Notes: a model not told the origin generated them from the letters alone. 64,000 nucleotides of DNA from Candidatus Paceibacter sp. (GCA_020725175.1 DYFM01000006.1:2190-66189); one strand, 5' to 3'; positions 3,541 through 54,262 are shown, counted from the first letter of the stretch. Made by a program: numbers and translations.

Positions 3541-3684
3541 AACAGCGAAATGACGAAATAAAGAAATAAGGTAATAGTTATGAAAGTACAATTACTAGAA
3601 CATACAATGAACATTTAATCTGTTTCGTTATTTCGTTATTTCGTTATTTCGTTATTTCGTTATTTCGTTGTTTCTTTATTTCGA
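3541..3684. repeat. Inverted pair of octamer arrays: GAAATAA-type units (3541-3570) versus a (C)GTTATTTC x6 tandem array (3621-3684)
   Basis: Direct 8-nt tandem repeats readable in the sequence; the same architecture recurs at 5501-5660, 18340-18420, 24028-24065 and 39641-39735. Confidence 0.6.
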
Positions 3685-4359
3685 TACAACAACCGCATAC
3701 CATGTATAAAATCCATATACTCCTCCCCCACTCCAAAAATCCAACAGTTCTTCTTCAGAAAGCGTCCGATTTCCCGGTAGCACCCCATTATCATCCACAG
3801 TTAACCCACTCTCTCCCGCATCATGCCACGAATCATATACATAAAATTCCTTATCTTCAAAATGAAAACCAACCAAAGTAAGATAATGTTGTACGCCTTT
3901 TTTCTCTCCCAGCAGAATAATCGGTTGTCCAGCAGATAAATTTGAGCGTAAAAACGCAATTCGTTCACTATCGGTAATAGATGCATCATGAAGTCGGAAA
4001 GATTCTGGAATAAAATCCATTTCTCTCAGCGCCTGTTCGATTCCCAGTGGATGAGTACCGTAGCGGGGAATTTGGTACGAAATTGTAGCGGCAACTTTTT
4101 CAGAGGAAATATCATTCTTTCCCAAAACTCTTGCAACCGCCGCCACACTATAGGGTCCACAGGTCGTACCGGTTTGAAGATAGTTAAACGCTGAAGGATA
4201 ATTCAACGCGACCACATCTCGCGATTCAGTAAACACCGGAGGGATCTCCCGTGTACCAGAAAAAAGTCCACTATAATAAAAAACAAACCAAGCGAAAAAG
4301 AAAAGGAGAGGGATGGAAATTGATTGTAGAATAAAAACAATATTGACCGGTGAACGCAT
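3676..4359 (-). CDS. Membrane-anchored C39-like (papain-fold) cysteine peptidase domain protein
   Basis: TTCGPYSVAAVARVLG (Cys) ... QHYLTLVGFH ... VYDSWHD (His) pattern of Peptidase_C39_2; N-terminal TM segment. Start moved to the internal Met (MRSPV) to avoid overlap with the upstream gene. Confidence 0.55.
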   Translation of the reverse strand: MRSPVNIVFILQSISIPLLFFFAWFVFYYSGLFSGTREIPPVFTESRDVVALNYPSAFNYLQTGTTCGPYSVAAVARVLGKNDISSEKVAATISYQIPRYGTHPLGIEQALREMDFIPESFRLHDASITDSERIAFLRSNLSAGQPIILLGEKKGVQHYLTLVGFHFEDKEFYVYDSWHDAGESGLTVDDNGVLPGNRTLSEEELLDFWSGGGVYGFYTWYAVVVSK

Positions 4360-4360
4360 A

Positions 4361-5494
4361 CTAATGAAGTGGTAGCTGACACTGATTGAGCCCTTGTTTA
4401 TGTTCTTCGTACACTGATTCAACGTACCCTCTCATTCGTTTTTTAAAATGTGTTTCATCAAACGACTCCGCCCATGTACGAATTTTTTTCGTATCCCATT
4501 GTTCAGGCTTAAATGATAAAATAACATGAAGAAGTGTTTCCCACTCTTGCCGATAAAACAACTGACCAGTCAGTCCCGGAATTACCGTCTCAGTAGCGCC
4601 ACCAACACCATACGCAATGACCGGACGACCACTCGCCATAGACTCAACAACCGTGAGACCAAAATCCTCTACTTGAGGATTGAGAAACGCCAGCGCATGT
4701 CGCATAAGATGAGCTTTTTTGGTTTCCGAAACACGTCCCAAAAATTCAATGTTTGGTTTGGCATACTTCTTCAACGTATTGAGAGCCGGCCCATCGCCAA
4801 AAATTTTTAACGGTGTTCCGAGACGGTTGAATACTTGGATCAAAAGATCAAACCGTTTGTATGGTACCACTCTTCCTCCGGCTAAAAAATAATTTCCCAA
4901 CGTTTCTGTTTCATCAATCGGAAAAAACGTCGCTGTGTTAATCGGAGGGTATAACAAATCACTTGGACGACGATAATATTTCTGAATCCTCTGTTGCACG
5001 GTACGAGAATTGGCGAGAAACCGGTCAACCCGATCCACACTCATTTTATCCCACAGTCGCCATCGATGAATAAACTGCGGCAAAAGCGACTTAACGATCG
5101 GTCCATAACGCAACTCTTCCAGATATTCATGTGTATCAGTCCACAGGTACCGCGTTGGAGTGTGACAGTAGGAAATATGGAGTGTGTCCGGGCGTGTAAG
5201 CACCCCTTTGGCAAACGCACTGGTTGATGACACCACCACATCAAACTCATGTAAATTATGTCGTTCGGTAGCAATAGGCATGAGCGCGGTATACCATTGA
5301 TAATGTGTCTTTCCAAATGGTAACTTGGCGATAAACGACTCTCGTACATCACGACCCACAAACTGAGGGAGTTTTTTCCTGTCATGAAACAAGACAAAAA
5401 TAGGCGCTTCCGGCCACAATTCATGAAATGATTGAAGAACACGCTCCGCTCCCCCATCCTGAGAGAGGTAGTCATGCACGAGGGCGATTTTCAT
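4361..5494 (-). CDS. Glycosyltransferase, GT4 family
   Basis: N-terminus MKIALVHDYL..GGAERV, typical of GT4; C-terminal GT-B domain. Start set at MKIALV. Confidence 0.8.
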   Translation of the reverse strand: MKIALVHDYLSQDGGAERVLQSFHELWPEAPIFVLFHDRKKLPQFVGRDVRESFIAKLPFGKTHYQWYTALMPIATERHNLHEFDVVVSSTSAFAKGVLTRPDTLHISYCHTPTRYLWTDTHEYLEELRYGPIVKSLLPQFIHRWRLWDKMSVDRVDRFLANSRTVQQRIQKYYRRPSDLLYPPINTATFFPIDETETLGNYFLAGGRVVPYKRFDLLIQVFNRLGTPLKIFGDGPALNTLKKYAKPNIEFLGRVSETKKAHLMRHALAFLNPQVEDFGLTVVESMASGRPVIAYGVGGATETVIPGLTGQLFYRQEWETLLHVILSFKPEQWDTKKIRTWAESFDETHFKKRMRGYVESVYEEHKQGLNQCQLPLH

Positions 5495-5564
5495 AATTAG
5501 TTCGAAATATCGAAACAAAGAAATAGCGAAATAAATTGATTGACATAAAGAAATGTGCGTTATT

Positions 5565-20395: not shown

Positions 20396-21979
20396 CTACA
20401 CCAGACTCCTCCCAGTCATTTCTAGCGGCTGTTCAATGCCGAGAATCTTAAGCATGGTAGGTGCGACATCGGCGAGCATGCCAACCGGAGGAAGTAAACT
20501 CAAATCGCCGTTTGGCGGATCTCCCGACGGTCCGGCCTGTCCATGAAACTGCTCACCTATGATATACAATGGAACAAGATTTGTACTATGTTCTTTATCC
20601 ATTTCCGTGGTTTGTAGATTCACGACTTCTTCCGCATTCCCATGATCTGCGGTAATAAGAAGCACTCCACCTTTAGCAAGGACATGAGCCGCAATGTCAC
20701 CCAAACAGGTATCGACTGTTTCACAGCCACGAATTGTTGCTTCCAAATTGCCGGTATGTCCCACCATATCTCCATTGGCAAAGTTGATCAAAATAGTATC
20801 ATATTGTTCTGCATCAATGGCTTTCACCACATCTTTAGCTATCTCCCGCGCAGACATTTCCGGTGCTTGGTCATAAGAAGCAACTTTTGGAGACGGAATA
20901 ATTTTTCGCTCTTCTCCCGGAAAGGGATCCTCTATCGTTCCATTTAGGAAAAAAGTGATATGCGCGTACTTTTCTGTTTCCGCTACATGGTACTGCGTTA
21001 AACCTTCTTTACTAATTACTTCCGCCAAACTGTTATGAATGATGACCGGCGGAAATGCTACCGTAACCGGAATTTCTTTTTCATACTCTGTCATTGCCAC
21101 AAAATTTAGATCATTGATATATGTTCGTTCAAATTTGGTAAACGCCGGGAGCACAAAAGCCTGAGTGATTTCTCGTGCTCGATCAGCTCGAAAATTAAAA
21201 AAGATTAACGCATCTCCTGACTCTACCGTAGCTACTGGCTTTTCTTTTGTCCCAATAACTGTTGGAACAAATTCTTCATCATATATTTTTTTTTCGTAAG
21301 AGGCCTCAATCGCCGTAATCGGATCTGTAGCATAGTCTTTGGCAATACCCTCCGCAATCGCTCGATACGCAGCCTCCACCCGATCCCAACGATTATCACG
21401 ATCCATTGCCCAATATCTTCCCATCAAAGAAGCTATTTTCCCCACTCCTAATTCTTTCATCTTTTCTTGTAACTGCTCAATAAATCCTTTTCCGCCGTTG
21501 TACAGTGCATCGCGTCCATCCATCATAGCGTGGACATACACCTCTTTCAAGCCATGTTTTGCGGCCAGTTCTAGGAGTGCAAAACAATGACTATCACTGG
21601 CATGGATATTCCCCGGACTCACCAGTCCCATGATATGAAGTTTGGACTTATTCTTTTTCACTTGTTCAACTGCTTGCAAAAATGCGGCGTTTTCAAAAAA
21701 AGAACCATCATCAATCGCTTTATTGATACGTGGAAACGTCTGATAATAAATTCTACCCGCACCTATGTTTAAATGTCCCACCTCTGAATTACCCATTTCT
21801 CCAAACGCCAGTCCAACTTCATTCCCGGACGCACGAATCGCCATAACTGGATACTCACGAGCGAATCGATCCAAGTTTGGTGTTTTTGCTTTGGTAATCG
21901 CGTTTCCGTCACCATCAGGTGCGATGCCCCAGCCATCGAGAATGGCAAGCACTACCGGACAAGGTCTTGACTTATTCAT
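20396..21979 (-). CDS. gpmI: 2,3-bisphosphoglycerate-independent phosphoglycerate mutase
   Basis: VVLAILDGWG N-terminus, metal-binding Ser region, ADHGN C-terminal motif; 527 aa. Confidence 0.9.
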   Translation of the reverse strand: MNKSRPCPVVLAILDGWGIAPDGDGNAITKAKTPNLDRFAREYPVMAIRASGNEVGLAFGEMGNSEVGHLNIGAGRIYYQTFPRINKAIDDGSFFENAAFLQAVEQVKKNKSKLHIMGLVSPGNIHASDSHCFALLELAAKHGLKEVYVHAMMDGRDALYNGGKGFIEQLQEKMKELGVGKIASLMGRYWAMDRDNRWDRVEAAYRAIAEGIAKDYATDPITAIEASYEKKIYDEEFVPTVIGTKEKPVATVESGDALIFFNFRADRAREITQAFVLPAFTKFERTYINDLNFVAMTEYEKEIPVTVAFPPVIIHNSLAEVISKEGLTQYHVAETEKYAHITFFLNGTIEDPFPGEERKIIPSPKVASYDQAPEMSAREIAKDVVKAIDAEQYDTILINFANGDMVGHTGNLEATIRGCETVDTCLGDIAAHVLAKGGVLLITADHGNAEEVVNLQTTEMDKEHSTNLVPLYIIGEQFHGQAGPSGDPPNGDLSLLPPVGMLADVAPTMLKILGIEQPLEMTGRSLV

Positions 21980-22141: not shown

Positions 22142-23722
22142 TTACAATAATGATGTTCCAGTCATTTCTTTTGGTTTTGGAATGTGTAGTAATTTTAAAA
22201 TAGTCGGTGCCACATCAGCCAACCGTCCATTTTTTCTAAGTAGCTTCTTTGGCAGATTATTTGAAATTAAAATAAACGGTACTGGATTGGTCGTATGTTC
22301 TGTCATCATCTCGCCGGTTTTTTCATCAATCATTTGTTCCGCGTTTCCGTGATCAGCAGTAATACACACTTGTCCATTTTGCTTCAGTACCGCTTGTACT
22401 AATCGATCAACTTCTTTATCAAGAATATGAACTGCTTTTTTTGCGGCCTGGAAATTTCCAGTATGCCCAACCATGTCAGCGTTTGGGAGGTTCACGACAA
22501 TAAAATCATACGTACCTTTTGAAAAATAGCCAATTATTTTTCGCGTCACTTCTTTCGTCATCATTTGCGGAAGATCAGCATACGTATAGTGTCCAGAAGA
22601 ACGAATAAGTTCTCGATCTTCACCATTGATAGGGTCCGCAAAACCGCCATTGATAAAGTAAGTCACATGCGCATACTTTTCTGTTTCTGAAATGTACAAC
22701 TGTTTTCTGGTTTCACCAATTGCCTTGGCAAGACACATCTGAATATCCGGACTCGGAAAGGCGGTCAACACTCGAGACAGATCCGGTCCAAAATCTGACA
22801 TAGCCACAAAACAGATGTTTCGAAGCACCTTTTTTCGTTTGAATGATCCGGGATTTAATTTGTTAAATGCCGGCTGGACAAAGGCTTTTGTCAACTGTCG
22901 CGCTCGATCACTCCGTGCGTTGAAAAAAATTACCGCATCACCTTCATCCACCATAGCCAATGGTTTTCCGTTTTTTTGTATGACAGTTGGGTGAAGATAT
23001 TCATCGGTTTCATTTCTATTATACCCTTGTTCAATAGCCTCTTCAGCACTTACAGCCTTATGTTCTGCTTTTCCTCTTACAATTGCATCATACGCCATTT
23101 CGGTACGGTGCCACAACTTGTTTCGATCCATAGCATAAAATCTCCCCATGATTGATGCTATGCGTACTCGTGGTGTGAGTTGTTTTTGCAGTTGTTTCAA
23201 ATATTTAATCGCTGAGTGTGGAGAAGAATCACGTCCATCCGTAAAAAGATGTACATACACGTGCTTAACCCGCCTCAGTTCGCAATAACGAAGTAATGCG
23301 TACAAATGCTCAGGATGTGCGTGTGCACTATCACCGTCAGTCAAGAGCCCCATAACATGAACCGCACCACGATGTTTTTTTGCATGTCGAACCGCTTGTT
23401 CAAATGATGGATTGTTGAAAAATGTTTTGTTTTTAATTGCCTCAGAAATTCGAACCAAATCCTGCTCGACAATTCTCCCAGCCCCAATATTGAAATGCCC
23501 GGCTTCAGAGTTTCCTTCTTGCCCCACGAACAGTCCCACGTCTTTACCGTGTGCCTTGAGGGTTGTACTAGGATATTTTTTCATATACGCAAATATGTGC
23601 GGTACTGTTTCCGGCGTGATGGCATTTCCCGGTTTCTTCGGATCAGCAAGTCCAAATCCATCAAGAATAATCAGAAGAGTAGGGGGAATTTTTTGACTTG
23701 TTTTTGGGAATTTTGTGACCAT
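22142..23722 (-). CDS. Second iPGM-family paralog (phosphoglycerate mutase or related phosphopentomutase-like metalloenzyme)
   Basis: LLIILDGFG, GHFNIGAG, ADHGN motifs. Start set at MVTKFPK; the upstream ORF extension runs into GC-rich repeat B. Confidence 0.8.
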   Translation of the reverse strand: MVTKFPKTSQKIPPTLLIILDGFGLADPKKPGNAITPETVPHIFAYMKKYPSTTLKAHGKDVGLFVGQEGNSEAGHFNIGAGRIVEQDLVRISEAIKNKTFFNNPSFEQAVRHAKKHRGAVHVMGLLTDGDSAHAHPEHLYALLRYCELRRVKHVYVHLFTDGRDSSPHSAIKYLKQLQKQLTPRVRIASIMGRFYAMDRNKLWHRTEMAYDAIVRGKAEHKAVSAEEAIEQGYNRNETDEYLHPTVIQKNGKPLAMVDEGDAVIFFNARSDRARQLTKAFVQPAFNKLNPGSFKRKKVLRNICFVAMSDFGPDLSRVLTAFPSPDIQMCLAKAIGETRKQLYISETEKYAHVTYFINGGFADPINGEDRELIRSSGHYTYADLPQMMTKEVTRKIIGYFSKGTYDFIVVNLPNADMVGHTGNFQAAKKAVHILDKEVDRLVQAVLKQNGQVCITADHGNAEQMIDEKTGEMMTEHTTNPVPFILISNNLPKKLLRKNGRLADVAPTILKLLHIPKPKEMTGTSLL

Positions 23723-23829
23723 AGTACAAATACTATAGCGTAAAATGGGAGATAAATCAACCATAAAAAAGTGCTGTACAACACTTTTTATATTCAGAAA
23801 CACAGATAATCCCTCTCGATTCAATGAAT

Positions 23830-23985
23830 GTCCCCGCAGCACGTGTCCGCCTGGGGTGGAAGCTGACGGGGTATCGCTATAGGTAGTTTTTCCCGATCAA
23901 ATCGGGAGAGAATAAAACCCTCGTCCGCCTTGCTTTGCACGCCTTGCTTGTCCGCCTTGGGTGGGGGCTGTGGGCGGATTAAACA
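23830..23985. repeat. GC-rich dispersed repeat, copy B (full length)
   Basis: Aligns with copy A over about 150 nt; the internal hairpin is changed with compensation (CCCGATcaaATCGGG versus CCGTAGCaaGCTACGG); terminal GGCGGATTAAAC. Confidence 0.6.
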
Positions 23986-28822: not shown

Positions 28823-31800
28823 TTACCTCTTCTGTTCTTCTTGTTGAAGCTGTTCATTACGAGCAATAATTGCTCCACCACGCAATTTTGCTTCCACGGT
28901 AAAATCCATTGGCTCAGTCTGTTTCTTTTCATACGCCGGCTTTTCATACGTTACATAATACGTACTTGGACCAACCAGTGCGGCATATCGCCCCTTACTA
29001 TCGGTTATTTTTGTGTCAACCAGTTTGTTATACGCGGCATCGAAAATTCTCACTACTGTCTGAGCAAGTGGCTTTCTCGATACAACATCTCGAACAACCC
29101 CAAAACTATCCGGCAACGGACGGTACACATACCAACGAAACCCAAAGAATAAACCTACATGAAGAGCAAGGAGTGTAACCATGAGTGGTGTAGGAGAAAT
29201 GACGAAAGAAAGAACAGCGAGCGCGATTCCAATCTTCGACGCGGCCGTATGTCCAATGCGTCGCCCATGCTCACGAAGCACGTCTGTAACCGGTCGCACC
29301 TGATCAATCGGAGTAAGTGGAATATTGACCCCTACCACGTCATTTTTTCCTTGAACTGAAATTGTATCCCCATGATACACATGTGTATAGACTCCATCAT
29401 CTTGCACATATTTCAAATGTTCACTAATTCCTTGGAATCCTTGTTTGGTAACTTCTATCCTATATTCTCCCGGATCCACGATAAACAGATATCGTCCCTT
29501 CATATCAGTGACACGTGACTCTTTAATCGTGCCGGTTTTCGCGTCAAGCAAGCGTACAACTGCCAAGTCAAGTGGTTGCTTCGTAAAGCCATTGTAGACC
29601 ACTCCCCATTTTTTCCGACGTTTCAACCGAAATAACATGATTGGTTGCGTGAATAAATGTCGTAAAATAAGAAGAAGGGAAGTTCCAAAGCCGGTCGCGA
29701 CATTTGCTACCGCCGCCACTGCTGCTACCGGAGCGGCAATTCGTTGGTTTACCCGCTCTACCTCCGGATTATCGGTAAATCGCTTTATGCGATCCGTAAG
29801 GGGCTTAAGCGCCAAAGCCGCTGCTCGATATCGCTCTTCAATTGACCGCCAGCCGGAAATTGATCCAATCGATTCACCGGTACGCTCATCTAGATTCTCA
29901 GACCCTTCCTCTTGACTCTCAATCGGAGTGAAAATGTCTGTAGATGGCAGCCCTCCCTCATCTTCTCCTGTAGTATTTAAAGGCAAACCTGAACTTCCTG
30001 ACCCTGAAGATCCGGTGACCGGCGTATCAATAGGAGTACTATCCGGATACCCTCCGACCGGATTATTCGATGGATTTTCCGGTGTATCCGTTGGAGTATC
30101 TATTGGCAAATCAATCGGCGTCGGTTCAGGTTCTACTGAATCAAGCGGTTCTTCATCTTGTGGTGTCTCAGGCTGATCGATAGGTGCTTCCGCAGCTTCT
30201 GTGATAGTGAGCGTCGCAACACTACCTGAAGAAACGTTACCGGCCTTATCTTGCGCAGCTACCGTCAGTGCATAATCCCCGGTATCAAAATACGTGGGAA
30301 ATGTAAATGACCAATTTCCCTTATTATTAGCGGTTGTATAGTAGGTGGTCGCCACCGCTACTCGAAGGGTAGATACTGAAACCAACGCTGCCGACATGAT
30401 GCGTTTCTCTTTTTTAATTACGACTGTTGCGTACGGCTCTGTTTTCCCAGAAATTACCGGCGGAGATTTTTTTATCTTGTTCACAATTCCGCTATGAACC
30501 GCTCCAATCGTTGGTGGTTCTGGTGGGATAGTATCAAGCGTTACGCACAAATACGTCGCATACTCATATATTTTTGGACCGGTGTTTCGAAACTTTCCAT
30601 TGATACAATGTTTTCCCTGCACATCAGTCAGCTGCCAAGGAATTTGCTCTTGATCGTTTGTTTGATATGAAACAGAAGAAAAATCGGATGATGGTTCAAG
30701 GGACTCAAACAACGCCACCGTATTGGCGTAGCTCGTATCAAGTAATAAAACTACATCTCGACTATTCACCATCGTCATAGTTGGAAGTGAAGTCGGTTTT
30801 CCAACCTGTAGCAACCGAATCAACCGATTTCTTGGTAAAAAATCCTCATCCTCTTCACATTGCTCAATGGTCTCATCACACACCGGAGGGTCTTCCCCAT
30901 CAACCGGATCAATCGGTGGCGGAGGCGGTGGATTGTTTCCTCCGGGTGGAGCTCCTCCACCACTTGAATCATTATCACTGAGCGTAACCGTAACACTCCC
31001 TATCGTTATTCCATGATAATCCGCATCATTACTCGTTGCCGTGTGAGATATAGTCACGGAATGCGCTCCTTCTACCGTCGTATCATCAACCGGAGTCACG
31101 GTAACTGTCTGAGCAGTACTCCAGTTGAGAGTCGTAAAGGTGAGACTGGCAGTAGAAAGGGTAACCTGACTTCCTGAAGATACACCGAGCGCAATCGTGA
31201 CACTATCTGTTGGAGCAGTATTCAACACAACCGTATATGATCCACTTGAACCACCTTCACTGAGCGAAAGAGCGGCCGAGGACAATGTCACCGCCGGTGT
31301 CCCCGGACAGGCCCCGGTGGTAACAGCAATCGTAGCGGTCCAGTCGGTTTCAACAGTGGCACTATTTCGAGCCTTGGCTCGGAAGGTGTATTCTGTTTCA
31401 CAAGTTAAGTCTGAAATACTCAATGTTGTACTCGCCGTCCATCCCGAATTTTTTGCATTATCGAGTGTAGCAACATAGTACTCAGTTGAAGTTGGGTTAC
31501 CATTTGCCCCCACAGTAAACGTGATCGAAGAAGAAGCGGTGCTGGCGGCTGTCAAGTTTAATGGTAAGGCGGCTTTAGTGGTGGTACTAAATTCTGTAGA
31601 TGAATTGAAGTATCCCCAACTGTCGTACGCAAAGATGTTGAAGTAGTAAACAGTGTTTGGAGTAAGACCGGTAAATGTTTCACTAGTAGGCTGACCACCA
31701 AACGTACTGGAAGCCAAGTTTGCGTCTGTACTAGAAGTAAACGCGTTCGTAGAGGTAGTGAGTGGTGTTGAAGTACTATAGTGAATTTTGTATTCGGTAA

Positions 31801-34414
31801 AATTTTCATCGGTTGAGGTAGTGTTTGGGAAGGTAAACGCAACAGTTGAAGAAGTCAATGTAGAAATAGTCAATGCTCCGGGAGCGGTCGGGTCTTTGGT
31901 ATCGATTGCAAAAGCCGAAGTAGTTGCCGTCGTGCCATTTTCCGTGCCGTCGTTGGGGGTGAAACGCAGATAGATGGTTGATGTGGCGGTGTCAGGGATA
32001 TCAACGCCGATATTCCAGGTTGTCGTAACAGTAACGGTATTGGATGGCGCAATATCCGTTGCAATGTTGTACACGCGCCCGGCAGCGGTATTGGGTGCAC
32101 CGGTACTTGCTTCTACCGAACCAATTGTTGAGGAAGCCCACGTAACTCCATCGGTAGAATACTCAATTGAAAATTCGGTAATATCACCGTCAGTGTCTGA
32201 AATGGTGGTAGTGACAGTAACGAAGTTGGCGGAGGTTTGGGAGGGGGTGGAGGTGGTGAGGGTGGGGACATTATTATTATCAAAAAGTGCTAAAGAATAG
32301 TCGACAATACCATTGTGTGAAGAATCATATGGAGAGCCTGTCATAGGAAAATCAGCTGCGGGAGTCTTTGATACAAGTAATACCTGATTACTTGGGTTTA
32401 CAATAACATCCGCGACGATTTCATGTCCGGTTCCACCTAAGTATGATGACCCTAACAAGACATTTAATTCACTATTCATTTTAGCAATATACATATCTGC
32501 AGTAAAAGCTGCATCGCTAAAATTTTTATCATAGGAATCAGTGGTCGTAGGAAAAGCATTGGCGTACGTCTCCGTAAAAAAATAAACGCTTCCACTATCA
32601 TCTACCGTAACCTTTGGATTTAATAGAAAGGTATTCCCCTCTTGTCCAATATATGTAGAGTATTGAAGTGAGGTTAAGTCAGACGAAAAAGCACTCAATG
32701 CAACCGCATACTCAGCATGAGAAGTGGTATCATATGCTCCTGGTGTAGTTGAGGCAAATTCACCATTTTTACTTGTAGCCACATAAATTCTTTGGTTTAT
32801 CCTATCAAATGCTAAAGATTTCGCATCTGACCACAAATACGTTCCACTAACCAAGTTTTGTAGATTAGACGATAAAATACCAATATACCCTGCGGGAACA
32901 GAGCTGCCTTTTGGGACACTACTATAGGCACCTAAGCTCGTTTGAAAACCTGAACCAATATGACCTAAAAAAACTACTGTGTCAGACGCGGTAATTTCTG
33001 CATCAACAAACGTTTCACTATCACCTGTTCCTATGAATGTACCCGCATCATGTGTCTGCAAGTCAGAGGATAATTTTAAAACAAAAATATCACTAGACCC
33101 ATTGTGCGTATCATCAAACGAAGGAGTGGATGTAGGTGCATTACCTCCAGAGGTACCTACCACATACACACTTGTACCAGCATCATTTACAAGCACCTTA
33201 CCGTACACATCACCAACTACTCGAGAAGCAGTAAGAGAAGATAGATTATTGTTAAACTTAACAATATACCCGTTTGATGATAATGGGTCATACAACAATG
33301 CCGCCGTTGTGGTTGGAAAATCTGTACTAGCACTTTGCCCAGACAAATATACACTACCACTCGAATCTATAGCAATACTAGACACTTGATCTGAGTCGGA
33401 ACCTCCTATATAGGTACTCGCTAATAATTGTTGTAAATTACTAGACAACTTACTCACTACCACATCATTTACTCCTGTGTGTGTATTTGAATAAGGTGTT
33501 CCGCTCATCGGAAAATCCACGCTTGCGGTATACCCTGCAACAAATATATTCCCATTTGAGTCTATCGCCACATTACCTCCGTTTTCCTCATCTGTACCCC
33601 CCAAAAAAGTAGAAGCAGTTAAATTGGAGAGAATTGGATCAATAATTAGTGGAAAATTCTGATCATAAGATGCTACTGAAAATACTAGTTCTTGGTTATT
33701 TTTTACTACATATTCTGCAGGCACCTCAATTATTTTTCCGTCCTTTACTTGGTAAGAATAAGGAGCATCATGTGTAAATTTCTGATCACCTATCATAACA
33801 ACAACTTTCCCTTCTTCTACTACCATCAAATTATCAATTCCATTAAACTGAACACTAAATTTTTCTACCGGAAACAGTGCAGGAACAATTATATTATACT
33901 TTACCGTATTTTTATTGAACAAAAACTCAACCTCAACACCCGCTTTGTTTCTATAAACAATTTTTTCGTATGTGGGAATATCTGAAAAATGATCCTTACC
34001 TCGAAATTCACTTACTGTCATACCACCCCTTTCCTCAGCGACCAACTCATACCCACCTTCCTCAAGAAATGGAAACCACATATGATAAACAACTTCCTTC
34101 AGAACACCTTCATATTCTTCCACGTTTTGAATAACAACCTTATCCTGCAAAAAATATATCCCACCATTTTTGTTTTTTTGATAAAATTTTATATCATCTG
34201 GAGCTTGACCAATATTTTCAAGAAAAATCGAATTATTCAAGTTTTTTACAGCATTTTCTACCTCTTCAATATCAACATTATTTTTTGTTGAAATCTGTGT
34301 ATCTGTGCCTACGTTCTTTTGAACAATTTTAGTACCCAAAAAAAGTATAGACACTAATCCTACTGTAATTAAAGCTAATAAAAAAAACTTTTTCTTGTTC
34401 ATAAACAATTTCAC
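28823..34414 (-). CDS. Giant cell-surface protein (1863 aa): N-terminal anchor, SBBP beta-propeller repeats, FN3/Ig-like Thr-rich repeats, a Pro/Gly linker, and a C-terminal region with TM helices and two carboxypeptidase-regulatory-like domains
   Basis: Recurrent Y..G.T.S.DFP SBBP motifs; Thr/Ser-rich repeat region; PPGGNNPPPPPP linker; VRLLDAKTGTI..TDMKGRY and VRIFDAAYNKL..TDSKGRY CarbopepD_reg-like units flanking hydrophobic helices. Confidence 0.8.
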   Translation of the reverse strand: MKLFMNKKKFFLLALITVGLVSILFLGTKIVQKNVGTDTQISTKNNVDIEEVENAVKNLNNSIFLENIGQAPDDIKFYQKNKNGGIYFLQDKVVIQNVEEYEGVLKEVVYHMWFPFLEEGGYELVAEERGGMTVSEFRGKDHFSDIPTYEKIVYRNKAGVEVEFLFNKNTVKYNIIVPALFPVEKFSVQFNGIDNLMVVEEGKVVVMIGDQKFTHDAPYSYQVKDGKIIEVPAEYVVKNNQELVFSVASYDQNFPLIIDPILSNLTASTFLGGTDEENGGNVAIDSNGNIFVAGYTASVDFPMSGTPYSNTHTGVNDVVVSKLSSNLQQLLASTYIGGSDSDQVSSIAIDSSGSVYLSGQSASTDFPTTTAALLYDPLSSNGYIVKFNNNLSSLTASRVVGDVYGKVLVNDAGTSVYVVGTSGGNAPTSTPSFDDTHNGSSDIFVLKLSSDLQTHDAGTFIGTGDSETFVDAEITASDTVVFLGHIGSGFQTSLGAYSSVPKGSSVPAGYIGILSSNLQNLVSGTYLWSDAKSLAFDRINQRIYVATSKNGEFASTTPGAYDTTSHAEYAVALSAFSSDLTSLQYSTYIGQEGNTFLLNPKVTVDDSGSVYFFTETYANAFPTTTDSYDKNFSDAAFTADMYIAKMNSELNVLLGSSYLGGTGHEIVADVIVNPSNQVLLVSKTPAADFPMTGSPYDSSHNGIVDYSLALFDNNNVPTLTTSTPSQTSANFVTVTTTISDTDGDITEFSIEYSTDGVTWASSTIGSVEASTGAPNTAAGRVYNIATDIAPSNTVTVTTTWNIGVDIPDTATSTIYLRFTPNDGTENGTTATTSAFAIDTKDPTAPGALTISTLTSSTVAFTFPNTTSTDENFTEYKIHYSTSTPLTTSTNAFTSSTDANLASSTFGGQPTSETFTGLTPNTVYYFNIFAYDSWGYFNSSTEFSTTTKAALPLNLTAASTASSSITFTVGANGNPTSTEYYVATLDNAKNSGWTASTTLSISDLTCETEYTFRAKARNSATVETDWTATIAVTTGACPGTPAVTLSSAALSLSEGGSSGSYTVVLNTAPTDSVTIALGVSSGSQVTLSTASLTFTTLNWSTAQTVTVTPVDDTTVEGAHSVTISHTATSNDADYHGITIGSVTVTLSDNDSSGGGAPPGGNNPPPPPPIDPVDGEDPPVCDETIEQCEEDEDFLPRNRLIRLLQVGKPTSLPTMTMVNSRDVVLLLDTSYANTVALFESLEPSSDFSSVSYQTNDQEQIPWQLTDVQGKHCINGKFRNTGPKIYEYATYLCVTLDTIPPEPPTIGAVHSGIVNKIKKSPPVISGKTEPYATVVIKKEKRIMSAALVSVSTLRVAVATTYYTTANNKGNWSFTFPTYFDTGDYALTVAAQDKAGNVSSGSVATLTITEAAEAPIDQPETPQDEEPLDSVEPEPTPIDLPIDTPTDTPENPSNNPVGGYPDSTPIDTPVTGSSGSGSSGLPLNTTGEDEGGLPSTDIFTPIESQEEGSENLDERTGESIGSISGWRSIEERYRAAALALKPLTDRIKRFTDNPEVERVNQRIAAPVAAVAAVANVATGFGTSLLLILRHLFTQPIMLFRLKRRKKWGVVYNGFTKQPLDLAVVRLLDAKTGTIKESRVTDMKGRYLFIVDPGEYRIEVTKQGFQGISEHLKYVQDDGVYTHVYHGDTISVQGKNDVVGVNIPLTPIDQVRPVTDVLREHGRRIGHTAASKIGIALAVLSFVISPTPLMVTLLALHVGLFFGFRWYVYRPLPDSFGVVRDVVSRKPLAQTVVRIFDAAYNKLVDTKITDSKGRYAALVGPSTYYVTYEKPAYEKKQTEPMDFTVEAKLRGGAIIARNEQLQQEEQKR

Positions 34415-34495: not shown

Positions 34496-36721
34496 CTATC
34501 TTCTAACCGATCTTTGCCCAGCCCAACTTCTTGAATATACAGTTACTTCTTTTTCTGACAACACCTTTCGATTTACTGTATCATACAAACGAACACGATA
34601 CTTATCTGACATAACATTCATCGAGTAAGTGTAGGTCGTAAGTAGCGAAAAACCATCAGTAGGATTTGGACCAGAAATAATCGTTGGATACACCGTAATA
34701 CCTTGTGAATTTTTCCATTCCACCTTTATCTCTCCACTTAACAGTTTATCGTACGCAACAATTCCAGGATAAACAGAGATCTCAATCATCTGTCCTTGGT
34801 ACAATGTATTCTTGTCTGTATTAAGAATATAGACAACTTCTTTACTCTTAATTTCAAAAGCAGAACTTTGTGCAACAACGGTATTGAGCTTGTTTCGAAC
34901 TTCCACTACATACTTTCCAGGCAAAAGATTACTTGTACTATATAAAAAGTAAGTATGACCATTTGAAAGACTGGTGGTAATGGCTGGCAATAATGAAACC
35001 TGATTCAATTCGTTTCTAATATACGAAGTAAAGCCATAAGTTAAATCGCCCGGGACACTCACGGCAACAGGTTCTTGCTGTTCATAAAAAGGTAAAGCTC
35101 CCTCAACTGGCAGAATATGAAAAGCTGAAACAGGAGTTGCCCCTGCAGTACCGTTTAACTTAGTTACAAAACCATCCTCCGCACCTTCGTCTAAAGAGTG
35201 ATTTTTTTGAAAAGCATTAGGAGAAACCGGAAAATCATAACTCTGCGTGTTACCTACAACCACAATACTAGAATTTGGACTAATGATAATTTCAGACCCT
35301 GAATCATACGAACTACCACCCAAATAGGTTCCTGATACAACATTGGTTAGAGTTGAATTATAATTTAGCACAACTGCATCTGCTATACCATTAATAGTGG
35401 TATCATACCCGCTTACTAAACTTGTATTTGGATCTAAAAATTTTGTTCCAGCAACATACACATCTCCAATCGAAGTCACCTTAACACTGTTTAAAGAAGC
35501 TGTGAGTACTGAGTTCATTACTGCACCTAGCGAACTTGAAAATTTAGTTACAAACCCACCTCTTAAACCTGAAGGACTATTAACAGGATTAACGGTAGAA
35601 GGAAAATTTGTACTCAAAGTTTTTCCCACAACATATACGTGACCACTAGAATCAAGAGCTATATCTTCTGGATAATCCTCATCTTTTCCACCTAGATAAG
35701 AAAAAGCTTGCACGCTTGAAAAATCAGAACTAATCTTTGCCACAAACACATCACTTTGAGACGGATAAGTAGAATTAAAACTCACATCATATCCATTTCC
35801 AGGTACAGCAGAAAAGTATTTACTCGTAGTTAAACCTGTCACATACATAGATCCATCACCAGCCAACACAATACCTCGTAAATCATCTTTTCCGTTTGTT
35901 CCACCAACAAATGTACTTTTTAATAAAGTTGATAAAGAATTGTTAAGCTTTGCCATAAACCCTTCAGTATATCCACCATGAACAGTTTTTAACGTACCAA
36001 CAGTGACCGGAAAATCGGAACTTTCTGTTTGCCCCACGACATAGACTGACCCAACAGAATCTATGGCGATATCATCTATTTCGTCTGTATTTGTACCACC
36101 AATAAATGTGGATGCCATCAAAGATGTTAAGTCAGGATTTAATTTACTAACAAAACCCACTGTTCCCCAAAGTCCTTGACTATACCCATCATAAACCGTG
36201 TCATAAGCACCTGAAGTTACTGGGAATTCAAAACTTCCTGTAAACCCAGCAATAAATATATTTCCACTTGTGTCTAGAGCAATAGCCTTCCCAACCCCAC
36301 CTCCACCAATAAAAGTACTCGCTAAAACAGTCGACAAGTCAGAACTAAATCTTGTAATATAGACATCAGAAGGTACATTATTTTCCTGACTGATTACAGT
36401 TGAATATGCGTTTGTTGTGACTGGGAATCCAGGAGAATTTGTGTTACCAACTACATAAATAGTTCCATCACCAGCAACCTTCACATCATTAATCTTATCC
36501 CAAGCTGAACTACCCAAGTAAGATGAAGCAGATAAAGTACTCAAACTGGCAGCCTGAGTAGTAGGTACAAAACAAAACAAAGAGAGAATAATTCCTAACG
36601 TTACCAAACCAGCACCTCTCACTAACGAATAAATTCGGGCAACTAACATAGTGTCCGTTTTAAATAATAAAGAATGATAAGCCATAGGGCATGTAGTTAT
36701 ATAATCACAAAAAAGCCTCAT
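34496..36721 (-). CDS. SBBP beta-propeller-repeat surface protein, a paralog of the N-terminal part of the giant protein
   Basis: Signal anchor; multiple xSxDFP / GxTxSxDFP repeats (NSPGFPVT, GSFEFPVT, ESSDFPVT, LSTNFPST, QSYDFPVS). Start uncertain (alternative Met at 36649). Confidence 0.75.
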   Translation of the reverse strand: MRLFCDYITTCPMAYHSLLFKTDTMLVARIYSLVRGAGLVTLGIILSLFCFVPTTQAASLSTLSASSYLGSSAWDKINDVKVAGDGTIYVVGNTNSPGFPVTTNAYSTVISQENNVPSDVYITRFSSDLSTVLASTFIGGGGVGKAIALDTSGNIFIAGFTGSFEFPVTSGAYDTVYDGYSQGLWGTVGFVSKLNPDLTSLMASTFIGGTNTDEIDDIAIDSVGSVYVVGQTESSDFPVTVGTLKTVHGGYTEGFMAKLNNSLSTLLKSTFVGGTNGKDDLRGIVLAGDGSMYVTGLTTSKYFSAVPGNGYDVSFNSTYPSQSDVFVAKISSDFSSVQAFSYLGGKDEDYPEDIALDSSGHVYVVGKTLSTNFPSTVNPVNSPSGLRGGFVTKFSSSLGAVMNSVLTASLNSVKVTSIGDVYVAGTKFLDPNTSLVSGYDTTINGIADAVVLNYNSTLTNVVSGTYLGGSSYDSGSEIIISPNSSIVVVGNTQSYDFPVSPNAFQKNHSLDEGAEDGFVTKLNGTAGATPVSAFHILPVEGALPFYEQQEPVAVSVPGDLTYGFTSYIRNELNQVSLLPAITTSLSNGHTYFLYSTSNLLPGKYVVEVRNKLNTVVAQSSAFEIKSKEVVYILNTDKNTLYQGQMIEISVYPGIVAYDKLLSGEIKVEWKNSQGITVYPTIISGPNPTDGFSLLTTYTYSMNVMSDKYRVRLYDTVNRKVLSEKEVTVYSRSWAGQRSVRR

Positions 36722-46421: not shown

Positions 46422-46494
46422 GGGCCTGTAGCTCAGGGGTTAGAGCACAACGCTTATAACGTTGGGGTCGGTGGTTCAAAACCACCCAGGCCCA
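46422..46494 (+). tRNA. tRNA-Ile with anticodon UAU (Ile-type body, reads AUA)
   Basis: GGGCCUGUAGCUCAGG...GGUGGUUCAAAACCACCCAGGCCCA closely resembles the bacterial tRNA-Ile(GAU) body; anticodon loop CUUAUAA; extended -10 (TGCTATACT) upstream. Confidence 0.75.
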
Positions 46495-46497
46495 CAT

Positions 46498-48471: not shown

Positions 48472-48556
48472 AAACAATAAAGCAATAAAGCAATATAACA
48501 ATTTAGCAATATAACAATTTAGCAATATAACAATTTAGCAATATAACAATGTAACC
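48472..48556. repeat. Tandem repeat, 16-nt unit CAATATAACAATTTAG x about 4, preceded by AAAGCAATA units
   Basis: Direct tandem repeat readable in the sequence. Confidence 0.7.
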
Positions 48557-48879
48557 ATTTAACACATAACACGATAATTAAAAAATATCACACTACATCC
48601 GTAGTGTTTTTTTAAACAACAAACATACAAACAAAAAAGTTATTCACAGTTTTACTTGCAACACTATTTCAAAAAAACAAAAAACATTTTATACTATATG
48701 TGAAAGGTCGAAGAAAAAATTTTTGTAAAAAAATTTTTTCGAATAGTTTTTACATCAATGCTTGTCATGTAAAAACGGCGACGTATTTGTAGGATCATTT
48801 GGTGTGTACCATGGTCATGTCAAATATGATTGCAAATACAATCTTCATCCTTCATTAGAAGGAATTACTTCAATATATT

Positions 48880-49002
48880 ATGCCAGCAAAGAAACGTCCA
48901 GCAGCTAAGAAGGCTGCAAAGCGACCAGCTAAGAAAGCTGCAAAGAAGCCAGCTCGAAAAGCTGCAAAGCGACCAGCTAAGAAGGCTGCAAAGAAGAAAT
49001 AA
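48880..49002 (+). CDS. 40-aa lysine/alanine-rich basic protein (histone H1-like / AKKA-repeat)
   Basis: ORF MPAKKRPAAKKAAKRPAKKAAKKPARKAAKRPAKKAAKKK with a GAAGGA RBS 8 nt upstream and a perfect intrinsic terminator 10 nt downstream; absent from the ORF track because it is under 60 aa. Confidence 0.55.
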   Translation: MPAKKRPAAKKAAKRPAKKAAKKPARKAAKRPAKKAAKKK

Positions 49003-49052: not shown

Positions 49053-49270
49053 TTCTAATGTCTAATTCCTAAAGAAGTATACAGCGGATTCAAAATTTTA
49101 ATTAATGTCCCCGTAGCAAGCTCCGGGAAATAAAACCCTATGCACGCCTGGAGCTGTGGGCGGATTTACATTTTAGCTTTTCTTTAATGAGGTGGTAGGT
49201 GTAATGCAGACTTATTCTAGGTTTTACATTAGGCTTTGTATTAGAAATTAAACATTAGACATTAGAAATT
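49053..49270. mobile_element. TIR-bounded MITE-like element carrying a partial GC-rich repeat (copy D, 49108-49168)
   Basis: TIRs TTCTAATGTCTAATTCCTAA / TTAGAAATTAAACATTAGACATTAGAAATT resemble those at 44033-44190; the core CCCCGTAGCAAGCTCCGGG..CACGCCTGGAGCTGTGGGCGGATTTACA matches the 3' half of copy A. Confidence 0.45.
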
Positions 49271-50564: not shown

Positions 50565-50670
50565 TAATTTCCAAATAAAAAATTCCAATTTCCAATCTGC
50601 GTGATTTGATACTACCACATAATGATCGCTTTGGAAATTGGAAATTGAAATTTGGAATTTATTTACCAGC
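50565..50670. repeat. Intergenic inverted repeat AAATTCCAATTTCCAA ... TTGGAAATTGGAAATT
   Basis: 16-bp inverted repeats about 35 nt apart, made of GGAAAT / ATTTCC direct sub-repeats. Confidence 0.4.
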
Positions 50671-50840: not shown

Positions 50841-52114
50841 TCACTCCTCCTTCTTTGCGGGATAAAAACGAGTTTCTAATAATTCACACTTAACAAAACT
50901 ACATTCCCCGACAGGTGGCACATCATGATCGGAAGCTGTCTCTAAATAATAGTAAGAAATACCATTGTAATTGGTAAATGGACGCACCCCATTATATTTA
51001 CCTGGAACACCGACAGCTGCGTGTCTCCTATCATCTTCTGTGGCAATACTTAAATAAAGACAATCAATATGAACGGCATTGAGTAAGGAGATAGCCAACA
51101 TTGCAGATTCATTACACTGAGCATGTCCATTTAATAAAACGGCTTCTGGAGAAGCATTTCCGTCAGTGTTATTTGAATATTCTATTTCTTTTGAAACAAA
51201 TGTATGTATTTTTCTTACTTTACCTTCTACTATTCTCTCTCCTCCAACCACCGCCTCTGCTAATTCTTTTATAACTGAGGTTAACTTTATTTCTTTTTGA
51301 TCATAAGAGGGTAATTCATACTTTTCTTGATTATCAAGAACTTGTTGTATGGGAACTACGTAACTTTTTTTTCTCCATTAACATCAAGATGGACAGTAAC
51401 ATTCGGATCTTCTCTAAGCATGTTCGTAGGTATTTTAATAGTACCGCCAGCCTTAGGAGGAAGTATTAAATGATTCTTTATTCCAAAAATCCTATATGTT
51501 CGATCATACACCGCCCATCTCCCCTCTTTCTTTCTATATACACCAATTGTATATTCTTGGTTTTTTCCATGATACTTAACATCACGTATTTTATTATTTC
51601 CATCACGGATTATATCTATTTTTTCTCTATCAAGACTTACGCTTGTAAGAAGTTTCATGTTATTTACTACCAATTCAATAAGCTGTTCATCTGTTAAATC
51701 ATCTCGAAGATAATCTTGAATGTCAGCCCATGAACCTTCCTTTTCACCCTGCAGGTCTTTTTCAGTAAAATATGGCATTTTATCATACTTTTTTCTAGGA
51801 GCTTCCGAAAGAGGACCGATTGTCATTGGACCCAGTAGAGACAATGATAACTCAGAATCAGTAACTTGTACCGGCAAGAAATATGGTGAAATACATCTTA
51901 TTGCCGCTTTTGTTTCTAAGCCATTTCCTTCTATATTTTTTTTAATAAACGTAGTAAATTGTGTTTTACTATCATTTTCCTTTTGTTCAGGTTGTGATTC
52001 TATACCTGCTTTCACATATATCACTTTCACATCCCTTTTACACCCATTTCCTCCACCGAACACCAAAGAAGCAGCTGCCGCTGTAGTTGATAGTAGAAAT
52101 TGTCTTCTCGACAC
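50841..52114 (-). pseudogene. Tat-signal (SRRQFLL) transglutaminase-like cysteine-protease domain protein, split by a single-nucleotide frameshift in an A8 tract (plus-strand T8 at 51365-51372)
   Basis: ORFs 51356-52114 and 50841-51251 become one continuous reading frame if the A-run is A9 (or A6); downstream half carries the transglutaminase-core pattern GHAQCNESAMLAISLL...HAAVGV. Confidence 0.55.
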
Positions 52115-52168
52115 ATTTTTTCACAACTCATATATATCTATTACTTTTAATACCAAGGCAAACAATAA

Positions 52169-52894
52169 TTATCTCCCCACATACTCAATCTCTCCCTGAT
52201 CCAACCGTCGCAAACCAGCATCATTTGTCATTTCTTCATATATATGTGCCACCAGCCCTGGTACACGCGCAATAATAAACAACCCCTTCATGATCTGCCA
52301 ATCAAATCCCATGTCAGACAAAATCGCTGCCATTGAGCCATCGATATTGATTGGCAACGGCTTTGAAGATTGTTCATTCAGTGCATCGTGAACCGCAAGG
52401 GCAAATTCACAATGTTTTCCAAAAAAACCAACCTCACGTGCCATATCAAACAGAGCTTTGCTCCGATGATCAACTTTTAAAACAGCATGCCCATACCCCG
52501 GAATTCGTATTTTTTCTTGTTTAAACGTTTTTACCAAGCCCGCGACATGTTCTTCTCCAACATGAAACTGAAAAAACTTGGCCGCCCCTTCAATTGCCCC
52601 ACCATGTCGTTCACCCATCGCCAAGATGCCGGCAGCCAGCGACGTGTGGAGATTATTTTTTGCTGACGCCGTGATTCGGACCACTTGTCCAGAAGCGGTG
52701 CCAGGACCATGATCGATTGCAGCGGTAAACAATGCGTTTAACATCTTCGTTTCTTTTTCCGTCGGTAATTGCCCCCGCAAGATCAAAAAAATAGTCTCGA
52801 CAAAAGAATGATTTTTGATTAGTTCTTCGAGCGCATAACCGCGGATGAATTCGTGTTCGTTGACGATGTTGGTGATGGAGGTGGTGTATTTCAT
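52169..52894 (-). CDS. Citrate-synthase-family C-terminal-domain protein (citryl-CoA-lyase-like, 241 aa)
   Basis: Retains the three citrate-synthase catalytic positions (MGERHGGAIE, GYGHAVLKVDHRS, a downstream Asp) but lacks the N-terminal half of a full citrate synthase. Confidence 0.65.
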   Translation of the reverse strand: MKYTTSITNIVNEHEFIRGYALEELIKNHSFVETIFLILRGQLPTEKETKMLNALFTAAIDHGPGTASGQVVRITASAKNNLHTSLAAGILAMGERHGGAIEGAAKFFQFHVGEEHVAGLVKTFKQEKIRIPGYGHAVLKVDHRSKALFDMAREVGFFGKHCEFALAVHDALNEQSSKPLPINIDGSMAAILSDMGFDWQIMKGLFIIARVPGLVAHIYEEMTNDAGLRRLDQGEIEYVGR

Positions 52895-52914
52895 ATTTTT
52901 ATATCAATAACTAA

Positions 52915-53292
52915 CTAAACCTTATCCTTTAGACATTTAATACCCTTAATCAACTTATTCAACTCTTTTGCAATCTCATTTAGTGTTTGCAAGATTTTTA
53001 CAGAGATAGCATCCGATACTAAAGAACGTTTATTTGCCTGCTTTATCCAAAATTGCGATTCGTACAATGAGCCGCGGGCGTAATAATAGAATTTTACTTT
53101 ATCAGCATAGTGATATCGCCCAAATGCCTCAGCAATGTTTGCAGCAATTGAATCTACAGCCCTCGTCAATTGTTTTCCAATACTGTCCTTCTCAAAATAT
53201 TTCCACTTTACTATTTCATTCCAAACCACATCGGATACTTCTACCGAAGCAATATACACCGGCATATCTTGCAAGTAAAGTATTTCTTTCAT
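52915..53292 (-). CDS. Four-helix-bundle protein (TIGR02436 / rRNA intervening-sequence protein family)
   Basis: Characteristic length (about 125 aa) and helical pattern YASVEVSDVVWNEIVKW..QLTRAVDSIAANIAEAFGR..YYARGSLYE; start set at MKEILY. Confidence 0.65.
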   Translation of the reverse strand: MKEILYLQDMPVYIASVEVSDVVWNEIVKWKYFEKDSIGKQLTRAVDSIAANIAEAFGRYHYADKVKFYYYARGSLYESQFWIKQANKRSLVSDAISVKILQTLNEIAKELNKLIKGIKCLKDKV

Positions 53293-53365
53293 ACTATACC
53301 CGATACTGATATTAATATCGATATACAACGTATTAAACTGCTATAGCCTTGATATTTATTTTACC

Positions 53366-54262
53366 TTATGCAAAGGGTGCTACTAAAGTAACAAGATCTT
53401 CATATCGCTCTGCAATCATCACACCCACCTCTTTCAGTACAACTTCCTTCTCCTCGGCACTCTGCCCTCGCCCGACAATCGCCCCAGCATGACCGATGTT
53501 CATTCCTTCGGGAAATAAATTGGCAAATTTCCCACCGATGTAAATTGCGAGAGGTTTGGTAAATCCACCAGATTTAATCAAATCAACAATTTCAAATTCA
53601 TAACTACCACCATGTTCTCCAAAGATAACTACGGCTTTCGTATTTTCATCCTGCTCAAATTCTTTTAACAAATCAGCATACGTAGTGCCCATCAACAAAT
53701 CACCGCCCACATGTACCGCCGCACTTTGTCCCAGACCGGCTTTTCGAATTTGCCAGGCGACTTCATTGGTCATACCACCTGATCGAGAAATAAGACCAAT
53801 TGATCCCAGTTGAAATACCTGATCACAAAGTTCTTTTGGACCACCGACCACACCAATTCGTCCGACCCCCGGAACGATGAACCCAAGCGAGCTTGGTCCG
53901 ATGATGCGAATGTTTTTTTCTTTAGCGGCGGCGAGACAGTAAGCAGTATCTTTAATTGGAATACGTTCAACGATTACACTGATGAGTGGAATATCAGTAT
54001 CAATCGCTTCCAGAATTGCGGCTTTGGCAGCAAACGGTGGAACATAAACAGCGCTCACCGAAACATCTGGGTATTGTTGCTTCGCTTCTGTTACGGAATT
54101 AAACACCGGCTTTCCTTCTACTTCCTGTCCACCCTTACCCGGTGTTACCCCACATACAACATTTGTACCATACTCAAACATAGCCTTGGCAGCTTTTTGT
54201 CCTTCTTTACCGGTGATACCTTGGATAAGGACAGAAGTATGTTGTTGAAGAAGAAAACTCAT
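53366..54262 (-). CDS. sucD: Succinyl-CoA synthetase alpha-subunit-like protein (CoA-binding plus CoA-ligase domains)
   Basis: Collinear with E. coli SucD: VLIQGITGKEG, GVTPGKGG, SRSGGMTNEV, active-site GHAGAI. Start set at MSFLLQ; the upstream ORF extension is unsupported. Confidence 0.8.
   Translation of the reverse strand: MSFLLQQHTSVLIQGITGKEGQKAAKAMFEYGTNVVCGVTPGKGGQEVEGKPVFNSVTEAKQQYPDVSVSAVYVPPFAAKAAILEAIDTDIPLISVIVERIPIKDTAYCLAAAKEKNIRIIGPSSLGFIVPGVGRIGVVGGPKELCDQVFQLGSIGLISRSGGMTNEVAWQIRKAGLGQSAAVHVGGDLLMGTTYADLLKEFEQDENTKAVVIFGEHGGSYEFEIVDLIKSGGFTKPLAIYIGGKFANLFPEGMNIGHAGAIVGRGQSAEEKEVVLKEVGVMIAERYEDLVTLVAPFA

Follow-up and report, generated by a model that had tools for sequence, protein, structure and literature searches.

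A frameshift at an A8 tract divides a transglutaminase-like protease gene in a Magasanikbacteria-like bacterium and probably marks a young pseudogene

We analyzed a stretch of 64,000 nucleotides (nt) from Candidatus Paceibacter sp. (GCA_020725175.1 DYFM01000006.1:2190-66189), called the window throughout, around a gene for a transglutaminase-like cysteine protease that is divided by a frameshift at a run of eight adenines (A8). By sequence the host is an uncultured bacterium of the Candidate Phyla Radiation (CPR)/Patescibacteria and resembles the Magasanikbacteria; its valyl-tRNA synthetase is 60-65% identical to proteins named Candidatus Magasanikbacteria. The gene lies on the minus strand, and the parts of it that concern the frameshift, including two open reading frames (ORFs) with lengths in amino acids (aa), are as follows.

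51356..52114, minus strand: upstream ORF in frame 0, with a GTG start, 252 aa, ending in ...NGEKKVT*
51365..51372, minus strand: A8 tract and frameshift site (T8 on the plus strand), read in frame 0 as GA_A AAA AAA G
50841..51377, minus strand: downstream frame, -1 relative to the upstream ORF, with 179 open codons and a stop at 50843-50841
51359..51377, minus strand: overlap of the open stretches of frame 0 and frame -1, 19 nt, 8 of them the A tract (stop-to-stop frames 51356..52120 and 50841..51377)
50841..52114, minus strand: reconstructed ancestral gene, predicted to encode a two-domain exported transglutaminase-like cysteine protease of 424 aa if the tract is A9

The junction reads ...GTT AAT GGA GAA AAA AAA GTT ACG TAG on the minus strand, with the tract two codons ahead of the frame-0 stop TAG (51358-51356) and ...DVNGEKKVT as the C-terminal peptide of the A8 product. 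An earlier note on this DNA had the 252-aa ORF ending right after the A8 (T8 at 51365-51372), and both the coordinates and the stop were confirmed. In the -1 frame the last upstream stop, a TAA at 51380-51378, lies 5 nt ahead of the tract, and the frame is stop-free from 51377 onward. Because the two frames are jointly open over 19 nt only, the frame change must fall within them. A -1 shift on the tract leads to ...GEKKSYVV... and a protein of 424 aa. The note had also held that either A9 or A6 restores a continuous frame, and the translations bear this out, with products of 424 and 423 aa, respectively. The predicted junction peptide of the fused product is ...NGEKKSYVVPIQQ..., also written as NGEKKSYVVPIQQVLDNQEK. 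The first in-frame start of the downstream frame is a GTG at 51251-51249, which gives the 136-aa ORF reported by gene callers. This GTG corresponds to residue 289 of the fused protein and thus falls inside the transglutaminase-like domain, whose Pfam match starts at residue 284. Promoter and terminator scans between the two ORFs returned only chance-level results. We also considered reassignment of the stop codon and rejected it, as frame 0 past the TAG meets TAA and TGA within about 30 codons and has no homology there.

We then scanned 1.84 billion cluster representatives exhaustively with HMMER, using the fused sequence, and found only three homologs with the N-terminal region. The closest, P0007, is a 411-aa protein from a Candidatus Magasanikbacteria metagenome-assembled genome (MAG; GCA_016182415.1). 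It is 44% identical to the fused sequence (E 5e-102), and its residues 1-410 align in a single stretch with fused residues 1-420, across the junction, a degree of continuity that chance would not give. A tblastn search of the window DNA with P0007 gave two high-scoring segment pairs, in frames +1 and +3, that meet in the A tract, and the second begins at 51368, inside the tract, with K-S-Y. Identity to P0007 in this search was 50% for the downstream half and 37% for the upstream half. The same K-S-Y follows the junction in P0007 (DSKSY) and in P0012 (GKSY), and the P0007 gene reads GAT AGT AAA TCA TAT (DSKSY) at this site, in a continuous ORF with no A run. P0008 (700 aa) and P0012 (493 aa) are more distant, yet each carries the N-terminal region and a transglutaminase-like domain in one chain, and the P0012 match (137-395) crosses the junction.

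On this comparative evidence the two gene calls derive from a single ancestral gene, because the homologs are single chains, the tblastn alignment switches frame, the junction falls in the middle of a predicted hairpin, and the downstream GTG lies inside a domain. The assignment of both ORFs to one split gene, proposed in the note, is thus upheld by the end-to-end alignment with P0007 and by the two distant single-chain homologs, and the ortholog is one intact 411-aa gene, not two separate genes. The opposite reading takes the locus to hold two genuine genes, one for a 252-aa exported protein and the other for a 136-aa cytoplasmic transglutaminase-core protein translated from GTG 51251. Gene callers in all sources do report two genes, and a GAGG stands 2 nt ahead of that GTG, but we find this reading scarcely credible. 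All three homologs that have both parts are single chains, the 105 nt that separate the ORFs are themselves conserved in the -1 frame, and the 136-aa ORF starts inside the domain (residue 289 against a Pfam start of 284) and has no signal. The upstream ORF, moreover, ends mid-hairpin in the structural model described below.

Members of this family are extremely scarce. With the fused protein or a two-sequence profile as query, word-indexed protein searches brought up nothing beyond P0007 and the upstream ORF of the window itself, and a GTDB genome scan returned only the P0007 locus and an unrelated transglutaminase-like match in Bacteroidia. Two metagenome scans, one with peptide patterns and one with back-translated HAAVGVPGKY, gave no match in a collection that evidently lacks the JGI metagenomes holding this contig. 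Protein, genome and metagenome searches thus yielded no second ortholog besides P0007. The P0007 locus (JACPGR010000076.1, 18-1253; L006) has ruvA, ATP-grasp enzymes, a HepT/MNT toxin-antitoxin pair and gyrA as neighbors. The gene neighborhoods of P0007 and the window copy differ, and synteny is not kept.

Two further features describe the protein itself.

50856..51278, minus strand: transglutaminase-like/papain-like cysteine protease domain, about residues 280-420 of the fused protein
52040..52114, minus strand: N-terminal signal-like segment MSRRQFLLSTTAAAASLVFGGGNGC, with a twin-arginine-like motif

The fused sequence matches Pfam Transglut_core (PF01841) over residues 284-359 with E 1.1e-8 and 35.8 bits (cut-off 23 bits). 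The match ends ahead of His365, which together with Cys334 and Glu392 is invariant in the four-sequence alignment (A1); on the minus strand the three codons are Cys334 at 51116-51114, His365 at 51023-51021 and Glu392 at 50942-50940. A Cys-His-Asp core had been proposed for the downstream ORF. Cys334 and His365 fit it, and the acidic position aligns with the invariant Glu392 rather than with Asp. A downstream half without conserved catalytic residues, which would have spoken against a split gene, was not found, since all three residues are invariant.

An AlphaFold2 model built from a 15-sequence alignment had a mean predicted local distance difference test (pLDDT) score of 63, with about 90 for residues 280-420, and it places the junction in a turn between strands 238-245 and 248-255. 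As modeled, the upstream ORF supplies the signal-like N-terminus followed by a domain of unknown function that is cut inside a beta-hairpin, and the C-terminal domain is predicted to have a transglutaminase-like/papain-like cysteine protease fold. Foldseek comparison of the model with the PDB matched LapG (4u65, 4fgq), the Cytophaga putative cysteine protease 3isr, the transglutaminase 4xz7, CPR-C4 (7ob6) and PeiP (8z4f, a pseudomurein endoisopeptidase), with E values of 6e-5 to 3e-3 (best 5.8e-5), probabilities of 0.99-1.00 and identities of 12-22%. A sequence search of the PDB gave no significant match (best E 0.41). The protein resembles LapG/BTLCP (4fgq, 4u65), 3isr, CPR-C4 (7ob6, PMC9108980) and PeiP (8z4f) in fold and in the Cys and His that are invariant here. 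It differs from them in that identity is only 12-22% and the acidic position is Glu. Its N-terminal domain, unlike that comparison set, is confined to a tiny family of three homologs found.

The N-terminal segment carries an S/T-R-R-x-F-L motif, MSRRQFLL here and MTRREFL in P0007, which makes export by the twin-arginine translocation (Tat) pathway plausible. The Tat signal noticed earlier was real as a motif shared with P0007, but it scored under both curated thresholds: Pfam TAT_signal (PF10518) gave E 0.0059 and 16.9 bits against a cut-off of 22.7, and TIGR01409 gave 13.5 bits against 16.7. The sources disagree over the start of the upstream ORF, which NCBI, Logan and JGI place at GTG 52114 (252 aa) and GEM (P0003) at Met29 (224 aa). 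The GEM start drops the twin-arginine signal-like segment, and homology to P0007 favors the GTG.

The A8 frameshift is genuinely present in the DNA and did not arise in assembly. Contigs that encode exactly the 252-aa product number 8 and represent at least four datasets, the sources being NCBI (GCA_020724605.1), Logan (SRR5011273, SRR5011277) and JGI (3300029892, 3300029893). In all five loci that we fetched (L001-L005) the tract is A8, and their identity to the window is 99.85-100% across as much as 12.7 kb. Next to a DUF389 gene lies a 16-bp tandem repeat, AGCAATATAACAATTT, with 3.9 copies at 48489-48550 (array to 48473-48564). This repeat, 2.8 kb off, has one extra unit in the JGI assemblies (L004, L005), the sole difference in 12.7 kb. 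Because of this difference the assemblies are not copies of one consensus, and at least two distinct consensus sequences are represented. We found no literature on the run, assembly and metagenome accessions.

We also examined every A or T run of at least 8 bases in the 64 kb. There are 25, including A9, T9 and T10, and 15 poly-A runs of this length are in sense orientation. Twenty of the 25 lie inside ORFs, a share of 0.80 against a coding fraction of 0.87, so this AT-rich genome does not avoid such runs in its genes. The other 19 ORF-internal runs, of 8-9 bases, are all in frame, with two A9 and one T9 in sense orientation among them, and valS (15175-17925) and the iPGM genes contain in-frame A8/A9 tracts; only the tract at 51365-51372 coincides with a frame break in the window. 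A second candidate split gene, the overlapping ORFs 4361-5518 and 3676-4422, was rejected, as the two encode distinct proteins, a complete GT4 glycosyltransferase and one that is Peptidase_C39_2-like.

Sequencing error, with a true sequence of A9 and an intact gene, was one of the alternatives left by the note. Homopolymers are the classic site of length miscalls, and the assemblies may share a sequencing chemistry and some of them even reads. Nevertheless, the A8 is identical in two SRA runs, two JGI metagenomes and one NCBI MAG, produced with different assemblers, and the JGI consensus differs elsewhere, as independent assemblies would. A miscall is unlikely given A8 in several assemblies and 19 other runs of 8-9 bases in frame inside ORFs, and we judge an artifact of this kind very improbable.

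If the tract length were variable in the population, slipped-strand mispairing would toggle the gene reversibly between OFF (A8) and ON (A9 or A6), as happens at contingency loci of host-adapted bacteria, and phase variation was indeed the explanation first offered for this locus. In favor of it, the homopolymer sits within the coding sequence of a surface or secreted enzyme, changing it by one base brings the frame back, nothing else in the gene is damaged, and copy number does vary at the 16-bp repeat in the same population. The assemblies, however, show A8 on all contigs from at least four datasets, and the 16-bp repeat differs between them while the A tract does not. By exact look-up in about 15 billion proteins, the products of A5, A6, A7, A9, A10, A11 and A12 were absent and only that of A8 was present. 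About 20 other coding A/T runs in the 64 kb are at least as long as this tract, and all of them are in frame; P0007 lacks a tract at the site. Among tracts known to switch at a useful rate, a poly-A run of eight stands at the low end. What the locus has in common with the simple-sequence contingency loci of pathogen surface genes is a homopolymer inside the coding sequence of a protein that is probably exported; here there is no length variation among assemblies, and the tract is a short one of a kind typical for this genome. Nothing marks the A8 tract as a contingency locus, the proposal of phase variation found no support, and we consider such switching quite improbable.

Another way in which the gene might remain active is recoding, for which two features next to the tract are relevant.

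51311..51359, minus strand: imperfect RNA hairpin of 49 nt, 5 nt past the tract, -10.4 kcal/mol, z -2.3
51373..51376, minus strand: GGAG, Shine-Dalgarno-like, abutting the 5' side of the tract

In frame 0 the tract is a classical -1 slippery heptamer, A_AAA_AAA, and a -1 shift by the ribosome or one additional A in the mRNA yields the full-length protein. Functional recoding would mean that the A8 is used or tolerated and that -1 frameshifting, addition of an A by RNA polymerase, or both produce enough full-length protease, the 252-aa product then being a by-product or a second functional form, as in dnaX or tssM1. Several points favor it. The heptamer is in the correct frame for the shift that is needed, the hairpin begins 5 nt downstream, and the frame-0 stop is two codons away. 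Nothing is damaged in the downstream frame, where the catalytic residues are invariant and the rates not accelerated.

The hairpin, the nearby stop and the abutting GGAG are suggestive, but the support is weak. Segments as stable as the hairpin make up 12% of all 49-nt windows and 2.3% of GC-matched ones, and 12 of 104 runs of A7 or longer are followed by an equally stable segment, so that we rejected the hairpin as evidence of a stimulator. In dnaX a stimulatory Shine-Dalgarno-like sequence lies about 10 nt upstream of the slippery site, and the GGAG here is too close and hence mis-spaced. The truncated product would end mid-hairpin in the structural model, and in the sole ortholog both the A run and the frame break are missing from the site. 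We know of no documented cellular recoding outside mobile elements in this lineage.

There are precedents for rescue by slippage. Disrupted genes with single-ORF homologs elsewhere can be restorable in this way (PMC1088944), Citrobacter rodentium tssM1 is rescued to about 20% by transcriptional slippage on A11 (PMC4256274), and A_AAA_AAA together with A_AAA_AAG accounts for 72% of the frameshift heptamers of insertion sequence (IS) elements (PMC4066793). The present site resembles tssM1 in having a premature stop just past a poly-A tract and the C-terminal domain in another frame, but in tssM1 the tract is A11, restoration of about 20% was measured and both forms are needed, whereas here the tract is A8 and the truncated form would end in a predicted beta-hairpin. 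It likewise shares with -1 programmed frameshifting at A_AAA_AAA/G in IS elements and dnaX the heptamer, the frame, a hairpin 5 nt downstream and a transframe fusion, and differs from it in an unconserved site, an undistinctive hairpin, a mis-spaced GGAG and a gene that is not part of a mobile element.

Expected efficiencies are low as well. In E. coli, heptamers without a stimulator shift at 2-10 times a background of 0.055%, with A_AAA_AAA at more than 0.10% (PMC4066793). E. coli RNA polymerase slips poorly on A runs: it bypasses indels only at runs of at least 7 T or, in the case of A's, of a greater length (PMC6260861). The A8 is shorter than proven transcriptional slippage sites (A9 to A11) and falls short of the 9 A/T used as the threshold in the transcriptional slippage survey. 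By the logic of Baranov et al. (PMC1088944), the abundance of in-frame A8/A9 tracts in this genome's genes, with no avoidance, argues for inefficient slippage on them in this organism. The same work looks to conservation as a sign of functional slippage, and the continuous ortholog without an A run does not display it. The sequence permits both -1 ribosomal frameshifting and transcriptional slippage, neither of them raised in the earlier note, so either is possible, but without positive support. We therefore regard functional recoding as unlikely. As for the more specific idea that the A8 is a working recoding signal fixing the ratio of a 252-aa exported fragment to the full-length protease in a CPR bacterium, through -1 frameshifting aided by the hairpin and the nearby stop, RNA polymerase slippage, or both, we consider it decidedly unlikely.

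We favor the view that a one-base deletion, A9 to A8, has become fixed and that the gene is probably a young pseudogene, from which unprogrammed slippage would leak full-length protein at a low level at most. This was named in the earlier note as an alternative, and with a localized frameshift and an intact single-chain ortholog it is now the best-supported reading. The ancestral gene would have encoded an exported protein of about 420 aa with a twin-arginine-type signal-like N-terminus, an N-terminal domain and a C-terminal protease domain. The ancestral tract was presumably A9, which makes A9 to A8 the most parsimonious change. One base would have been lost in the lysine-coding A tract and the loss then fixed in the population. 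Decoding of A8 would run into the stop two codons past the tract and give a 252-aa product that ends in a beta-hairpin turn and lacks the catalytic domain. The downstream 179 codons alone are unlikely to give a working exported enzyme, because there is no start before GTG 51251 and no signal peptide. We infer that the split gene has lost its function. A small full-length leak may persist through unprogrammed -1 slippage on A_AAA_AAA or RNA polymerase slippage on A8; any such leak would probably be low, and nothing indicates selection for it. The frameshift is not conserved, as P0007 is continuous at the site, and the lack of further damage points to a recent event.

The locus parallels the authentic-frameshift genes surveyed by Baranov et al. 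(2005, PMC1088944), in which an ORF is broken at a poly-A run and one more A restores collinearity with a single-ORF homolog. The runs there are 9A/9T, whereas here the run is A8 in a genome that does not avoid such runs.

Several observations weigh against a pseudogene. The downstream half shows no decay, its 179 codons being stop-free in a gene of about 36% GC, and it is closer to P0007 than the upstream half is (50% against 37% identity). The catalytic residues Cys334, His365 and Glu392 have all been kept. Relative-rate tests, for which P0008 and P0012 served as the comparison and whose power is low, gave counts of 11 versus 15 and 11 versus 10 and thus no acceleration in the window lineage. 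An undamaged downstream half fits a very recent event, but it fits equally a gene still expressed through slippage. The tract also forms a true -1 slippery heptamer, placed in the frame that the shift requires, with a hairpin 5 nt downstream and the frame-0 stop close behind. Finally, all copies come from one nearly clonal population (99.85-100% over 12.7 kb), and since no closer relative was found in the collections searched, the age of the frameshift is not measurable.

If it is a recent pseudogene, the locus adds another case to the homopolymer frameshifts of metagenome-assembled genomes, events of a well-known kind. The 252-aa and 136-aa gene calls merit annotation as a single disrupted gene. 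Because the family is so rare (3 homologs among 1.84 billion), the reconstructed 424-aa sequence is a useful object for structural and functional work. The locus is also a clean test case for slippage of a CPR ribosome or RNA polymerase on A8, because the shift needed (-1 or one additional A) and the diagnostic junction peptide are unambiguous. Recoding, if demonstrated, would make the locus a first example in its lineage, though one of modest interest.

Past the transglutaminase-like ORF, a 284-nt gap holds a 31-nt imperfect inverted repeat (50565-50661) that is 84% complementary, with arms 35 nt apart, TTGGAAA-type heptamers and then, on the minus strand, a T run. Related ATTAGAA heptamer repeats occur at 49240-49270, past the next gene, and the heptamer repeats at the two sites may be terminators or a small repeat family. 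A 24-bp tandem repeat at 48902-48993 (3.8 copies, 79% match) lies between the DUF389 gene and a 422-aa MJ0043_C/PHP-like gene; a spurious 80-aa ORF renders it as a peptide repeat of the QLRRLQ type.

On the other side of the split gene are ATP-citrate lyase/citryl-CoA synthetase/lyase-like genes, at 52169-54262 and on past 57400 (locus L001 1-5946). The set comprises ATP-grasp_2+Citrate_bind (407 aa), CoA_binding+Ligase_CoA (298 aa) and Citrate_synt (241 aa) proteins, interleaved with unrelated genes for unknowns of 732 and 159 aa, a TfoX_C protein and a 23S_rRNA_IVP four-helix protein (52915-53328). Such a citrate-lyase-like gene set is metabolically unusual for a CPR genome.

Elsewhere the window holds a bacterial RNase P RNA and two tRNAs, one of them a tRNA-Ile at 46422-46495 (plus strand) with the anticodon TAT (UAU), which is uncommon in bacteria. 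Adjacent paralogs of cofactor-independent phosphoglycerate mutase (iPGM; iPGM_N + Metalloenzyme) of 527 and 566 aa lie at 20396-21979 and 22142-23842 on the minus strand. An 1863-aa ORF (28823-34414, minus strand) adjoins the gene for a 741-aa protein with SBBP beta-propeller repeats (34496-36721, minus strand), and the two products are probably large surface proteins.

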